A stretch of DNA of 64,000 nucleotides from Nanobdellota archaeon (GCA_018221045.1 JAAOXT010000027.1:536-64535), one strand, 5' to 3'. Shown: positions 19,122 through 28,287, counted from the first letter of the stretch. Numbers and translations are program-made. The notes: generated from the letters alone by a model not told the origin.

Positions 19122-20102
19122 TTATACAGCGATTTGTGTGAACATTGTTTGTGCCAGTTTTTTAACAATGAAGAAAACTGTTATTGCCAGCGCGCTAAGA
19201 GGGATCATGTATTTCACTCCTCGAATCGCTTTTTCGCTTTCGAGTTCACCGATTATCAGTGAGGTGAAAACAGCGTTCAATAACAGGGAAGCCAATGAGA
19301 TTATTTGAATGTGCTCTGCAGAGATGGATTGGCCAGGAGACCTTATGGTTAATGAACCCATTCCCATTCCTGGAACACTGGTGACGTCTTGAAAAGTAGT
19401 CATTGATTCAACCAAGAAACCGGATAAGGCGAAAAGGAGCGGGGCTCCGAACGAGGAAGCTATCATGAACAAGATGGAGTAAGCACCTATACTGGCTTTC
19501 ATTTTATCCTTTAACTGTTTGGTTTGTCTTACGTCTTCAGCAATGCCTTCTATGAGCGCGGACATCTTGCTACCCCCTTTAACGCCTTCAACAATTAGTT
19601 TTACCGCTCTGCGCACAAGCGGGGAAGAAGAATTTCTTGATAATTCGGTCAGCGCGTCTTCCGTGCTGTAACCGAACAAAGCTTTTTTACTGGAGTTTTT
19701 TATGTTTTTTGAGAAGGAACCGAATTCTTCTCTGGCGGATAAGAATATGGCTTTTTCAGCGCTGATGCCTGAACGAATGTTTGAAGACATGATTGTTAAA
19801 ACGTCAGGCAATATTTTTTCGACAAAATCGTTTTTTCTGTCAATAGCTATCAAAAATATGATTTCGGATAGCAAGTGTATTGAAACAAAAATAATGATTG
19901 GGGTTAACACGAGCAGGAAGGCAGGAGTGTTCGTGTTCAAAACGTAAACAATGAATGTTATTGTCAGGGATAGCGCAAGAGTGTAAAGGAAGAAGAAGCC
20001 AGTCCACTGGTTAACGTCCAAGTTAACTCCTGCTTTCAGTAAATTGTCTTTCATGCGCTTAACATACTTTTTTGGCAGTGCATGCACGAATCTCTTATAC
20101 AT
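19122..20102 (-). CDS. type IV pilus platform protein, TadC/FlaJ-half-like (T2SSF domain), locus 1
   Basis: The N-terminal TM pair is followed by a cytoplasmic helical domain (LPDVLTIMSSNIRSGISAEKAI, VRRAVKLIVEGVKGGSKMSALIE) and C-terminal TM helices. It is a paralogue of 33681-34670. Confidence 0.75.
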   Translation of the reverse strand: MYKRFVHALPKKYVKRMKDNLLKAGVNLDVNQWTGFFFLYTLALSLTITFIVYVLNTNTPAFLLVLTPIIIFVSIHLLSEIIFLIAIDRKNDFVEKILPDVLTIMSSNIRSGISAEKAIFLSAREEFGSFSKNIKNSSKKALFGYSTEDALTELSRNSSSPLVRRAVKLIVEGVKGGSKMSALIEGIAEDVRQTKQLKDKMKASIGAYSILFMIASSFGAPLLFALSGFLVESMTTFQDVTSVPGMGMGSLTIRSPGQSISAEHIQIISLASLLLNAVFTSLIIGELESEKAIRGVKYMIPLSALAITVFFIVKKLAQTMFTQIAV

Positions 20103-20946
20103 GAGGTCTCACCTTTTGGATGGCTGTTAGAAAAAAAGTGTTTATTACGACCAGATAAACTGGTATCAGGTAAAAAATTTTTGTTAAAGAATCATTACTC
20201 ATTAGTGAGGAGAGAATTATCATTAAAGTCATGCCAAGTGCGGGGAGAATTATTGCTGAAAGCAAGTACATGACGCTCAGCGGAGTCAATTTTGACGAAA
20301 ACTGTTCTATCCTGATTTTTTTGGATCTTTCAATGTTCTGAACCATTGAATGAAGGGTTTTAGAGACGTCCGAGCCTTCTTTTAGAGAGTTTATTAACTG
20401 CCATAGCAGTCGTCGGAAGTCCTCTGAAGCAATTCTTCCCGCAAGTTCTTCAAGCGCTTCTAACTCGCTTTTGCCCGTCTCCAACTCGTGAACATATTTT
20501 TTGAATTCTTCAGAAATCTCTCCGTAATCACCAAACCCGACTCGAGAAATCGCGTTGAAAAGGGTTTGCCCGGAATTTACTCTAACGTAAATCTCTCTTA
20601 TTGCGAACGCAATGTTCTTGTCAAAATCTTTCGACCTTTTATTCGCTAAAAAATAAGGTTGCCTCATTTTTAGTATGAAAGCAAGCCAGAAGATCAGAAA
20701 ACCTGTTGCGAGCGAGAATAGGAAGTTATACGGGTTTAAAATATTCAAAAAAAATAATGTTATCAGCGCTGACGTAGTGTAAAAAGCGCTGAAAGAAGCG
20801 GATATGAGGACTGCTAGGCTGGTGTAATCAAGAACTGATTGTTTGATGCCCGCCCACTTGAGTGTTGGTGACAGTCTTGGAAACATGGAAGAAAGAAGTT
20901 TTGCTAGACCCCTAAAGTTTCTAGCATAATCAATCAATTCACCCAT
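20095..20946 (-). CDS. type IV pilus platform protein, TadB/FlaJ-half-like (T2SSF domain), locus 1
   Basis: AIREIYVRVNSGQTLFNAI...FRRLLWQLINSLKEGSDVSKTL is followed by TM helices. It overlaps each neighbour by 8 nt. Confidence 0.75.
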   Translation of the reverse strand: MGELIDYARNFRGLAKLLSSMFPRLSPTLKWAGIKQSVLDYTSLAVLISASFSAFYTTSALITLFFLNILNPYNFLFSLATGFLIFWLAFILKMRQPYFLANKRSKDFDKNIAFAIREIYVRVNSGQTLFNAISRVGFGDYGEISEEFKKYVHELETGKSELEALEELAGRIASEDFRRLLWQLINSLKEGSDVSKTLHSMVQNIERSKKIRIEQFSSKLTPLSVMYLLSAIILPALGMTLMIILSSLMSNDSLTKIFYLIPVYLVVINTFFLTAIQKVRPHV

Positions 20947-26116: not shown

Positions 26117-28287
26117 TAACCAACCTGCCCAACAATTATGTTGGAGTTAAGGTCTTCCGACCCCGAGTAAGTCCAAATAATGCTTCCATTAATCCCGTAA
26201 AACGCCGCGATTCTGTGATCCCAAGTGAGGCCTCCAACCAAATCAGGATGCCCGTCTAGGTCCAGGTCCCCTGAGTCAAGCTTGTTCATTGCTACGGGGT
26301 GCTGACTCGAATCATAAAACGTGCTTCCATTGATTCCATGCAGGGCACGGTAACTTTTTTGGTTGTCCCTGCCAAAAACAAGGTTAGCAAAACCGTCGTT
26401 GTTCAAGTCAACGGGATGAAGGATGTAAGAGTTCTCCCAACTAGAATCATGAATCCACATTTGTGTTCCGTTCTGCCCGTAAAAAGCGTAAACATAGTGC
26501 TCCCAGTCATTCATTGCAGCAACATCGCTTGTTCCATCATTGTTAAAATCGCCGACCGCGATTCGATCAACGCTCGCCCCAACACTACCTGAAATCCAGA
26601 CTTCACTGCCATCACTCCCGTTTAACAAGTAAACACTGTTCTTGTTAGTGCCTATGAACACGTCATCGTAAGAGTCTCCAGTAACCTCTTCTATAAGAAT
26701 CCTGCTCTCGCCTTTAGCGTTCAAAGACATTGAGGTCATCCAAAGAATGGTGCCATCCTGACCGTTATAAGCGTAGACTTGTTTGTTGCCATTATCATTC
26801 ACAACGATGTCGATGAAAGAATCTCCGTTGAAGTTCCCGGCACCAATGGTTTCAACGTTGTTCTGAGCGAAGTCGCTGGAAATCCATGTTTCCGCGCCTG
26901 TGCTCCCGTTAAGCTTGTAAACTTTTTTCTGATCTCCTCCGAAGAAAACACTTCCTTCATGGATTATTATATTAGATCTTAAATCGTCGTCTCCTAGAGT
27001 CATGGTGTAATTCCACATTTGTGTTCCGTTCTGCCCGTAAAAAGCGTAAATGATCTCCCAATCGTTTTTTCCAGCAACCACGTCGTTTAAACCGTCTCCG
27101 TTCAAGTCGCCGATGGCAAGGGTGTCAGGGTAATCATTTAGTGATGAGGATTCCCATTTAACGCTTCCATTGTTGCCGTGCAGAAGGATAACCCTTCGCG
27201 GCCAAGACCAGTCTGAGAACACGACTTCCAAATAATCAATGAATGGAACAGTGGTATTCACTCTTATTGAAGCATTAACTTCTTGGCCGAAAAGGGCGCG
27301 TGCAGTAACGTTTCCATCTTTGATTCCTGTCTGGTTTCCAAAAACCCTTATCACGTATTCATGAGTGCCTGACGAAAGATTTCCTAAATCCCTGAAAGAA
27401 TCCTTAACCCCTCCTGACACAAGGTCTATGTAATCAACGAAGCCTGGTTCAACAGTTAGGTTAGTGAAATAAAGTGTTCCCTCACCAGTGTTGTTAATAA
27501 TTATTGAAACTTCGTTGTACTCGCTTAAGTCAGCGTTAATGATTTGGTATACTGGTTCAACATTCAGAACTCCTTGAACCACTTTGACCGTTACGCTTGA
27601 ATTAACTGCAGAGTCTTCACCCATGAACTCAAGAACGCCTGAATACTCTCCTAAAGAATCGCCGAAAAACTCGGCAGTAACGCTTTTGCTTTCACCCGCG
27701 TTTAATAATCCGATATCATAAAAAATTTGTCTTCCCGCGGTAACGTTGTCCGTGTCTACTAACGAAGCCACGCCTCCCGTGGCTGTGATGTTCGTGTTAA
27801 CTGGTTGTGACAGGGTGTTCGTGACCATGAAATCATGAGTTTTGCTGAAACCCAAGTCAACCAAAAGCGTAAGCGATAATGGTTCGATAAATATTGATTC
27901 CGCTCCAATGGAAACACACCCGTTATCCAAAGCCTTTATGGTTATCAAATGATAACCCGCGTTTTCGGGTAGGAGTCCTTCAATGCAAGTGTCCGCTTCT
28001 TCCCACAAGTCAGAACCGGATGCAGTGTAAAAAGTTATGGTTTTATCGCTTGTTGACGTGCCGTTAATCATTTCAGGAATATCGACTAATAGTGTTTGTT
28101 GTGATGGCGGGCCTAAAGAGTTAACTACGTTAACAGCGTTCTTAATCTTTTTTAAGGAGACTTGGGTTTGCTTTAGGGAGGTTGTTAGTTGCGCTTGTTC
28201 TTGAGCAAAATAAGCGATTGGTGTAAGAGCCAAGAGTAGGATTCCTACAATAATCAAGTATTCAACGCTAACCTGGCCTTTAATCAC
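26116..28287 (-). CDS. pilin-led giant surface protein: class III signal peptide, conserved N-module and FG-GAP/VCBS beta-propeller
   Basis: The N-terminus is MIKGQVSVEYLIIVGILLLALTP. The C-terminal approx. 360 aa carry repeated Ca-binding-type loops (GDLNGDGLNDVV, GNFNGDSFIDIV, GDFNNDGTSDVA, DLNNDGFANLV, GDLDLDGHPDLV) alternating with aromatic strands (YAFYGQNGTQMW twice). Confidence 0.8.
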   Translation of the reverse strand: MIKGQVSVEYLIIVGILLLALTPIAYFAQEQAQLTTSLKQTQVSLKKIKNAVNVVNSLGPPSQQTLLVDIPEMINGTSTSDKTITFYTASGSDLWEEADTCIEGLLPENAGYHLITIKALDNGCVSIGAESIFIEPLSLTLLVDLGFSKTHDFMVTNTLSQPVNTNITATGGVASLVDTDNVTAGRQIFYDIGLLNAGESKSVTAEFFGDSLGEYSGVLEFMGEDSAVNSSVTVKVVQGVLNVEPVYQIINADLSEYNEVSIIINNTGEGTLYFTNLTVEPGFVDYIDLVSGGVKDSFRDLGNLSSGTHEYVIRVFGNQTGIKDGNVTARALFGQEVNASIRVNTTVPFIDYLEVVFSDWSWPRRVILLHGNNGSVKWESSSLNDYPDTLAIGDLNGDGLNDVVAGKNDWEIIYAFYGQNGTQMWNYTMTLGDDDLRSNIIIHEGSVFFGGDQKKVYKLNGSTGAETWISSDFAQNNVETIGAGNFNGDSFIDIVVNDNGNKQVYAYNGQDGTILWMTSMSLNAKGESRILIEEVTGDSYDDVFIGTNKNSVYLLNGSDGSEVWISGSVGASVDRIAVGDFNNDGTSDVAAMNDWEHYVYAFYGQNGTQMWIHDSSWENSYILHPVDLNNDGFANLVFGRDNQKSYRALHGINGSTFYDSSQHPVAMNKLDSGDLDLDGHPDLVGGLTWDHRIAAFYGINGSIIWTYSGSEDLNSNIIVGQVG
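26454..26492. repeat. 39-nt perfect intragenic direct repeat, copy 1
   Basis: tccacatttgtgttccgttctgcccgtaaaaagcgtaaa is identical to 27012-27050. Both copies encode YAFYGQNGTQMW in different propeller blades. Confidence 0.85.
27012..27050. repeat. 39-nt perfect intragenic direct repeat, copy 2
   Basis: Identical to 26454-26492. Confidence 0.85.

Follow-up and report, generated by a model that had tools for sequence, protein, structure and literature searches.

The 64,000-nucleotide window analysed here (G000:C7:536-64535) belongs to an 830-kb draft metagenome-assembled genome (MAG), G000, which comprises 31 contigs and is 89.7% complete. The window has a G+C content of ~40% and contains two type IV pilus-like gene clusters, locus 1 (19122-28287, minus strand) and locus 2 (33681-42642); coordinates are counted from the window start unless a contig is named. 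Judged from its genes, locus 1, the main subject of this study, is a genuine and intact type IV pilus gene cluster of a tiny symbiotic DPANN, Micrarchaeota-like archaeon. A contig scan of public assemblies returned five related loci, which are labelled Candidatus Parvarchaeota or Micrarchaeota. The system is of an already known kind, the ordered archaeal type IV pilus operon, and is found here in a poorly charted form. Scans of the window for tRNA genes and Rfam families found nothing.

Locus 1 contains nine minus-strand open reading frames (ORFs), all of which are intact and have the coordinates and sizes first predicted. The 5'-most gene encodes a 723-amino-acid (aa) modular pilin (26116..28287) composed of a pilin-like N-terminus, a beta-rich stalk (to residue ~335) and an eight-bladed propeller (residues ~340-723). 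Four smaller pilin-like proteins follow, namely pA (125 aa, 25739..26116), pB (159 aa, 25263..25742), pC (130 aa, 24874..25266) and pD (253 aa, 24116..24877), with the lengths of pC and pD given by the nearest ATG starts at 25266 and 24877, respectively. The remaining genes encode a Lys-rich 241-aa protein (21% Lys) with a C-terminal winged helix-turn-helix (wHTH) domain (22447..23172; translation may in fact begin with the ATG at 23100), a 503-aa assembly ATPase (20939..22450), a 283-aa TadB-like platform protein (20095..20946) and a 326-aa TadC-like platform protein (19122..20102). The minor pilin genes were originally described as chained by ATGA or TAATG overlaps. This description applies to the 723/125 junction (TAATG) and to the 159/130 and 130/253 junctions (both ATGA) but not to the 125/159 junction, which reads TTGA, as the pB start codon is TTG rather than ATG. 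Further downstream, the wHTH gene is translationally coupled to the ATPase gene by an ATGA overlap, and the ATPase/TadB and TadB/TadC pairs overlap by 8 nucleotides each. The predicted gene order is correct, but the series is not continuous on the minus strand, given that two plus-strand ORFs break the block between the pD and wHTH genes.

The ATPase matches T2SSE (PF00437) with 119 bits (cut-off 24.9) and contains the Walker A (GGTASGKT), Asp box (EDTKE), Walker B (RPDRIIVGEVR) and His box (HTGH) motifs at residues 245, 272, 314 and 337, respectively. Its best match in the PDB is A. fulgidus GspE2 (242 bits), followed by FlaI and CpaF (~174 bits each), and its close homologues carry the NCBI name 'CpaF family'. 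The two platform genes encode one T2SSF (PF00482) domain each, with scores of 66.4 and 39.2 bits (cut-off 25.2). Searches of Pfam and NCBIfam returned no unrelated secretion family for these proteins, in agreement with their predicted roles. The split of the platform into two genes, originally compared to that of bacterial Tad systems, is borne out by the two single-domain T2SSF genes; it is, however, not a special Tad-like trait but the norm for archaeal system 1/2 pili (PMC4858521, PMC13705601). An ATPase with its motifs, a T2SSF platform, class III-like subunits and a prepilin peptidase elsewhere in the genome place locus 1 in the type IV filament superfamily, and the two platform genes adjoining the ATPase gene are a feature of the Epd/system 1 pili. 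It is fairly probable that locus 1 encodes a functional type IV pilus of the two-platform kind known from archaea.

Two other classes of filament were considered and rejected. An archaellum is contradicted by the scores of the FlaI model (280.7 bits, cut-off 550) and the ArlJ model (22 bits, cut-off 400), by the split platform and by the lack of an archaellin match in the locus. A bacterial Tad/Flp pilus is likewise contradicted by the score of the TadA-family model (187.6 bits, cut-off 373) and by the lack of a Flp-like or secretin gene in the locus.

In all five pilin-like N-termini of locus 1, [KR][GA] precedes a single hydrophobic stretch, the sole predicted transmembrane segment of each protein, in keeping with the class III signal pattern that had been predicted for them. 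The sequences around the putative processing sites (marked by slashes) are MIKG/QVSVEY in the 723-aa protein, MKA/QVSVE in pA (Gln+1 and Glu+5), KA/QIVSLD in pB, SKG/FVFSLD in pC (hydrophobic +1 and Asp+6) and KKG/ILMSLM in pD, whose N-terminal segment lacks an acidic residue. The Class_IIIsignal family (PF04021) matches the 723-aa protein with 23.5 bits (cut-off 23.7) or, in a six-frame search, with 28.4 bits; among the controls, PF04021 passes its cut-off in Methanocaldococcus only. No Pfam or NCBIfam match was found for pA, pC or pD.

The pB protein contains a conserved G-x-P-x-N-W motif. DUF7287 is weakly touched by 6 of 20 pB family members, and among the controls this family matches Haloferax, Methanosarcina and Bacillus. 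A sub-threshold match of pB to DotH/IcmK was taken as chance. In the AlphaFold2 (AF2) model of pB (mean predicted local distance difference test (pLDDT) score of 75.8), a 49-residue N-terminal helix is followed by two short helices and a four-stranded antiparallel sheet, and the modelled topology is that of the general pilin plan. The top Foldseek matches of the model belong to ribosomal protein uS3 and were read as noise. A word-indexed protein search yielded four relatives of pB and one close relative of the 723-aa protein. Because few relatives were found, the AF2 alignments had little depth and left the first 350 residues of the 723-aa protein unmodelled. N-x-S/T sequons are enriched in the ten pilin-like proteins encoded by loci 1 and 2, each of which contains 1.9-5.1 per 100 aa, with the highest density in pD; the ATPases, platform proteins and neighbouring proteins contain 0-1.2 per 100 aa.

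The 723-aa protein was predicted to carry an integrin-like FG-GAP/VCBS propeller with six to seven blades. The FG-GAP assignment is sound, as FG-GAP_3 (PF13517, 64.9 bits) and FG-GAP (PF01839, 45.9 bits) both match above their cut-offs, but no VCBS match was obtained; PQQ_2 scores 54.4 bits. The number and type of blades, in contrast, have to be revised. Residues 351-723, which are modelled by AF2 with pLDDT values of 80-92, contain eight Y-x-x-x-G-x-[ND]-G-[ST]-x-x-W repeats and eight four-stranded units, and the best folds retrieved by Foldseek (BamB, the designed protein Tako8 and PQQ enzymes) are all eight-bladed. The modelled head is thus an eight-bladed BamB/PQQ-like propeller with FG-GAP-type Asp-rich loops. 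BamB is the best structural match (Foldseek E = 3e-13, target TM-score 0.6-0.7), and weak matches to the BamB and PQQ_2 hidden Markov models (HMMs) were also obtained, with the BamB equivalog scoring 40 bits against a cut-off of 285. Unlike BamB, the 723-aa protein bears FG-GAP-type D-x-N-x-D-G motifs in its loops, and archaea have no outer membrane; the likeness is a resemblance of fold only.

The N-terminal part of the 723-aa protein recurs in other contexts. Stand-alone homologues of its pilin module (133-135 aa) are found in three other DPANN loci (L018, L027 and L028), and its N-terminal 355 residues are 34% identical to those of a 942-aa protein of locus 2, whereas the C-terminal parts of the two proteins are unrelated. 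A pilin module that occurs alone and a shared 355-aa base that carries differing heads in loci 1 and 2 identify the 723-aa protein as a modular pilin. By analogy, its location is expected to be the pilus tip.

The propeller head is the sole part that differs sharply between sister strains. The sister strain (assembly JAFCDO010000001.1, 74 kb) carries both locus 1 and locus 2, and the proteins of locus 1 and its flanks are 92-100% identical in the two strains, compared to 72% for the 723-aa protein. This difference is concentrated in the head, since the first 330 residues are ~95% identical and the remainder ~55% identical at the amino acid level. The corresponding DNA forms a mosaic block (26124..27270, minus strand), within which identity drops from ~95% to 40-75% before it returns to ~95% at the pA start. 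The synonymous difference (pS) is 0.745 and saturated in the head versus 0.06-0.16 in the flanking genes and the stalk. The sharp boundaries and the saturated synonymous divergence indicate at the sequence level that the head was replaced through recombination by a deeply diverged allele and did not merely arise by fast point evolution. A donor copy of the propeller was not found in the G000 genome. The proposal that the 723-aa protein is a pilin-led adhesin is strengthened by the head-only replacement, together with the stand-alone module homologues, the propeller model and the sequons.

The sister strain also bears on the reading of locus 1 as a decaying or silent remnant, or as an artefact of MAG assembly. 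G000 is an incomplete draft in 31 contigs, and a recent survey doubts that the type IV filament genes of DPANN archaea make functional structures (PMC13705601). However, the nine ORFs are not only intact but coupled, and the dN/dS values of the machinery versus the sister strain (0.05-0.26) correspond to purifying selection. In addition, the contigs of 81 and 74 kb are colinear, and synteny is observed on independent assemblies from several phyla. A remnant or artefact is thereby rendered highly improbable.

As originally noted, a prepilin peptidase is absent from the window, in which no Peptidase_A24 match was found. The search of the rest of the genome, which had been proposed for the peptidase and a major pilin, located the former in full and the latter, probably, as a gene cut by contig ends. 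The genome contains a single A24 peptidase (PF01478, 51.6 bits), a 284-aa protein with EVPD and GGGD motifs (C30:2843-3697). This protein is neither a FlaK equivalog (31.2 bits, cut-off 330) nor an EppA equivalog (NCBIfam, 22.1 bits, cut-off 450), and the dedicated EppA-type peptidase that is a feature of Epd was accordingly not detected.

In most of the relatives examined, a ~150-aa pilin is encoded next to the locus or nearby, in many cases immediately after TadC. Its N-terminus reads K-G-Q-x-A-x-E-Y-L-M-T-Y-G-W or G-Q-G-A-T-E-Y-L-I-I-L, and its C-terminal domain is beta-rich. The ~150-aa pilin of G000, whose N-terminal start reads MKKGQSALEYLMTYGW..., is located at the ends of contigs C5 and C15. 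On C5 (5292-5354), the canonical pilin start MKKGQSALEYLMTYGWAILIV (E = 9e-9) has a GGTGA ribosome-binding site upstream and is cut by the contig end; on C15, the putative C-terminal fragment is followed by a T-rich terminator. C5 carries SMC, and C15 carries ScpA/ScpB-like genes (recognized by length and N-terminal sequence only), which fits C5 and C15 being neighbours. The probable major pilin gene seems to be where the assembly breaks, and strain variation is a possible cause. The ~150-aa C5/C15 pilin is the probable major pilin and would be encoded in trans. Pilins encoded in trans have a precedent in archaea, as those of Saccharolobus are encoded 192 kb from their machinery (PMC11178852). 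A short (~70 aa) Epd/Flp-like pilin without a globular domain (arCOG06620 type) was not found on contig C7.

In a second reading, the operon would build a short pseudopilus or display device of the bindosome or type II secretion system (T2SS) type. The five-pilin stub would then carry the propeller, or the other head in the case of locus 2, through the S-layer without a long fibre. In favour of such a device are the absence of a fibre-type pilin in cis in both G000 and the orthologous locus of G379 and the dominance of the set by cargo-bearing pilins; five is also the number of pilin-like genes in T2SS and Com systems, and the ATPase scores 145 bits against the bindosome ATPase BasE. This BasE score, however, is far under the cut-off and also under the FlaI score, and a ~150-aa pilin gene is present in G000 and also, immediately adjacent to the locus or a short distance away, in most relatives. 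A display device is thus considered unlikely, although not negligibly so, and a fibre-forming pilus is favoured.

Locus 2 matches locus 1 gene for gene, with identities of 50% for the ATPase, 32% for TadB, 34% for TadC and 20-29% for the pilins, and the two loci are, on the basis of these matches, paralogous operons. Each has its own KaiC-family ATPase, and that of locus 2 (32867-33547, minus strand) lies just downstream of TadC. The ATPase of locus 2 contains a Lys-rich C-terminal tail of ~100 aa (35550-35843, minus strand; 14.7% Lys overall), whereas the Lys-rich tract of locus 1 is found on the separate wHTH protein. In total, the genome encodes five T2SSE ATPases, and the corresponding loci comprise three with split platforms (two on C7 and one on C23) and two with fused platforms of 643 aa (C10) and 710 aa (C3). 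The C23 locus (C23:39132-49751) combines its split platform with a PilA/archaellin-like 167-aa pilin (KGITPVIA), and the loci with fused platforms (C10:339-11790 and C3:77903-101635) encode larger ATPases of 634 and 760 aa, respectively. A third run of genes in the window (54436-63942, minus strand) starts with a class III-like 394-aa protein (MKKGQIAVPVAL...) and continues with ORFs of 791, 1322, 346 and 290 aa, and neither an ATPase nor a platform gene adjoins this run.

The operon is widespread among related genomes. A two-sequence pB profile matched 115 of 401 genomes in the phylum, representing 92 of 281 genera. In 20-kb neighbourhoods, a recurring order was observed that consists of KaiC, a first pilin (large or small), pA, pB, pC, pD, sometimes MinD, and then the wHTH protein, ATPase, TadB and TadC. 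The operon order is kept in ~11 Micrarchaeota loci. Aenigmarchaeota, Nanohaloarchaea and Nanoarchaeota contain abundant homologues of the ATPase (~47-50% identity), and the same five-pilin order was found on one Aenigmarchaeota contig and one Nanohaloarchaea contig. The sets on these two contigs comprise a 135-aa homologue of the 723-aa N-terminus, a pA-like protein, pB (HMM E = 1e-28), a pC-type protein of 627-632 aa and a pD-type protein of 404-409 aa. Both contigs also encode the wHTH protein, ATPase, TadB, TadC and the ~150-aa pilin. In the Aenigmarchaeote, these genes come immediately after the five pilin genes, whereas the Nanohaloarchaeon has its pilin set on the opposite strand, convergent to the wHTH-ATPase-TadB-TadC genes. 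In L020 (12302-13816; genome G195), the orthologous ATPase is present as two gapped ORFs (122 and 343 aa), which could reflect a frameshift, an assembly error or a broken gene.

The N-terminal signatures of the pilins are characteristic of their positions in the operon. Gln+1 is combined with Glu+5 at positions 1 and 2 and usually with Asp+6 at position 3; at position 4, Asp+6 is accompanied by a hydrophobic residue at +1; and position 5 lacks an acidic residue. The Aenigmarchaeota and Nanohaloarchaea contigs display this pattern as well. The placement of the cargo varies, with the propeller on position 1 in locus 1 and a large domain or vWA on position 4 elsewhere. A vWA domain is found in a 953-aa pC-type pilin of a Nanoarchaeota locus (L029:4156-7017, ENA ERZ27247128), and this module also occurs in S. 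sanguinis PilB. Tentatively, and as a reading less likely than not, archaea of several DPANN phyla may share a fixed-order five-pilin 'priming' module, with the G-x-P-x-N-W pilin at position 3, which profile surveys would have missed and for this reason would describe as scattered pilus genes. The cargo position in this module would vary between phyla, and the strain-exchanged head would determine host attachment.

A third reading was also considered. Five pilins, one ATPase and a platform resemble the ComG operons (PMC8727766), and locus 1 might accordingly encode a Com-like uptake pilus for DNA or macromolecules, with the propeller as a capture module for host-derived material. DPANN cells depend on host macromolecules, and exchange via type IV pili has been suggested for the archaeon Mia14 (PMC5498576). 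Nevertheless, the genes beside the locus include neither a retraction ATPase nor a ComEC-like channel, a DNA-binding pilin motif was likewise not found, and propeller and vWA cargo are typical adhesion modules. An uptake function is therefore regarded as improbable compared with an adhesive pilus.

Several genes are associated with the pilus operon at its edges and within it. A KaiC-family ATPase gene (28375..29217, plus strand; Pfam KaiC, 213 bits) diverges from the 723-aa gene, and a MinD/ParA-family ATPase gene (29591..30343, plus strand) was identified near locus 1 by a Pfam match. A KaiC homologue adjoins the first pilin gene in L014, L015, L016, L019, L021, L025 and L026, and the closest orthologue, G379 (L014), shares the divergent KaiC gene. 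A MinD homologue is found in or beside the locus in L014, L015 and L019. The wHTH protein gives weak matches to Lrs14 and HVO_A0114; its homologues lie upstream of the ATPase in every relative examined, and one of them attains the HTH_5 cut-off. The two plus-strand ORFs that break the minus-strand block encode a small GTPase (23148..23765; Pfam MMR_HSR1) and a 100-aa protein without a family match (23807..24109). A GTPase homologue (112 bits) is also located between the pD and wHTH genes, on the opposite strand, in the orthologous locus of G379 (L014:11657-12178), which belongs to another family, and the GTPase is thus a conserved neighbour rather than a recent random insertion. The 100-aa ORF is missing from the sister strain, in which ~360 nucleotides are absent between flanks of ~95% identity.

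In the interpretation that we favour, and that we hold to be probable, the paralogous operons locus 1 and locus 2 both encode an adhesive two-platform (system 1/2, Epd-like) type IV pilus, and that of locus 1 would carry a swappable adhesin on a priming/tip complex. The five pilin-like precursors would enter the membrane via their N-terminal helices and be cut after [KR][GA] by the A24 peptidase encoded on C30. A hexameric ATPase acting on the TadB/TadC platform would then lift the pilins out of the membrane. On the model of the priming complexes and modular pilins of bacteria (PMC8179133), pB, pC, pD and the 723-aa pilin may form the priming/tip complex, and the fibre would be built from the trans-encoded ~150-aa pilin, from pA or from both. 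The eight-bladed propeller would be presented on its beta-rich stalk to bind a host cell or surface, and strains would exchange the propeller by homologous recombination. The KaiC-like, MinD-like and wHTH proteins may regulate or position the machine.

A number of observations count against this interpretation. The curated HMM for class III signals (PF04021) is reached by only one of the five leaders, and the AF2 model of the 723-aa protein is poor over its first ~350 residues. Foldseek returned no significant match for the pB model in the PDB, so that the pilin fold of pB is argued from its topology. For the candidate major pilin, the C-terminal fragment on C15 (C15:2-79, ending in …VTIAYTKGAISHTETGTLIGNVE before the stop codon) matches the profile weakly (E = 0.08), and it is a guess that the C5/C15 pilin belongs with locus 1 instead of locus 2 or the C23 locus. 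With five ATPase loci in the genome, any assignment of partners carries some uncertainty.

Cultivated DPANN archaea spend their lives attached to a host cell, which they recognise and hold. In this context, locus 1 provides concrete candidates for an attachment organelle and for a host-specificity module. If the proposed reading is true, the strain-exchanged head would decide which host cell an episymbiont can attach to. An ordered, complete operon occurs twice in a genome of 830 kb, with the peptidase and the fibre pilin alone in trans. Furthermore, the operon is present in about a quarter of the sampled Micrarchaeota, and the same order is found in at least two other DPANN phyla. The five pilin families are a source of profiles with which DPANN genomes can be surveyed again. 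A 2026 survey described ordered pilus loci as rare in DPANN archaea and the function of their scattered genes as unclear (PMC13705601); our observations suggest that this rarity is partly a limit of the profiles used.

Among known systems, archaeal system 1 (Makarova clade 1, which includes Epd of Methanococcus maripaludis) and clade 2 are close to locus 1. Like locus 1, the clade 1/2 systems combine one ATPase with two platform (tadC) genes, at least five minor pilins or class III signal proteins, including large adhesin-like proteins, a nearby MinD/FleN ATPase, KaiC-family ATPases and, often, a stand-alone major pilin (PMC4858521, PMC13705601); the association of FleN/MinD with archaeal pilus loci has been described previously (PMC4858521). 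The Gln+1 signal type of locus 1, which matches PF04021, is also shared with Epd. Locus 1 differs from Epd in that its candidate major pilin is a ~150-aa protein with a globular domain instead of the ~70-aa type, the peptidase of G000 is no EppA equivalog, and pA-pD belong to no Pfam or NCBIfam family. The coupling of the wHTH gene to the ATPase gene and the KaiC gene at the head of locus 1 are additional differences.

Within the same lineage, 'Ca. Mancarchaeum acidiphilum' Mia14 encodes a CpaF-family ATPase, two TadC genes and one FlaK-like peptidase elsewhere (PMC5498576), and unrecognisable pilins have been reported beside TadB/TadC in DPANN archaea (PMC6393860). By their gene lists, these pilus islands share with locus 1 the CpaF-family ATPase, the two platform genes and strain-specific beta-propeller surface proteins (PMC5498576, PMC6393860). 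Both papers list genes only and do not describe the five-pilin order, the N-terminal signatures, the pilin-propeller fusion or the head replacement. The fixed five-pilin order with its signatures across DPANN phyla, the pilin-fused propeller and its recombinational replacement between strains were not found described.

Bacterial modular pilins, such as S. sanguinis PilB (vWA) and PilC (lectin), CofB/TcpB and GspK, similarly carry a grafted binding module and are expected at the tip (PMC8179133, PMC9934059). Locus 1 is distinguished from them by its archaeal machinery, its class III signals and an eight-bladed propeller on a stalk, and no sequence relation was detected. The joint encoding of four small pilins and a propeller adhesin also resembles PilY1/PilC with FimU-PilVWX of the type IVa pilus and GspH-I-J-K of the T2SS. 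The tip subunit GspK lacks the conserved acidic residue, as does pD. PilY1, in contrast, is not a pilin and has a seven-bladed propeller of another family (PF05567) that gave no match in locus 1, whereas locus 1 carries its propeller on a pilin. The likeness of locus 1 to PilY1 and the bacterial priming complexes is one of functional analogy and is not evidence of homology.

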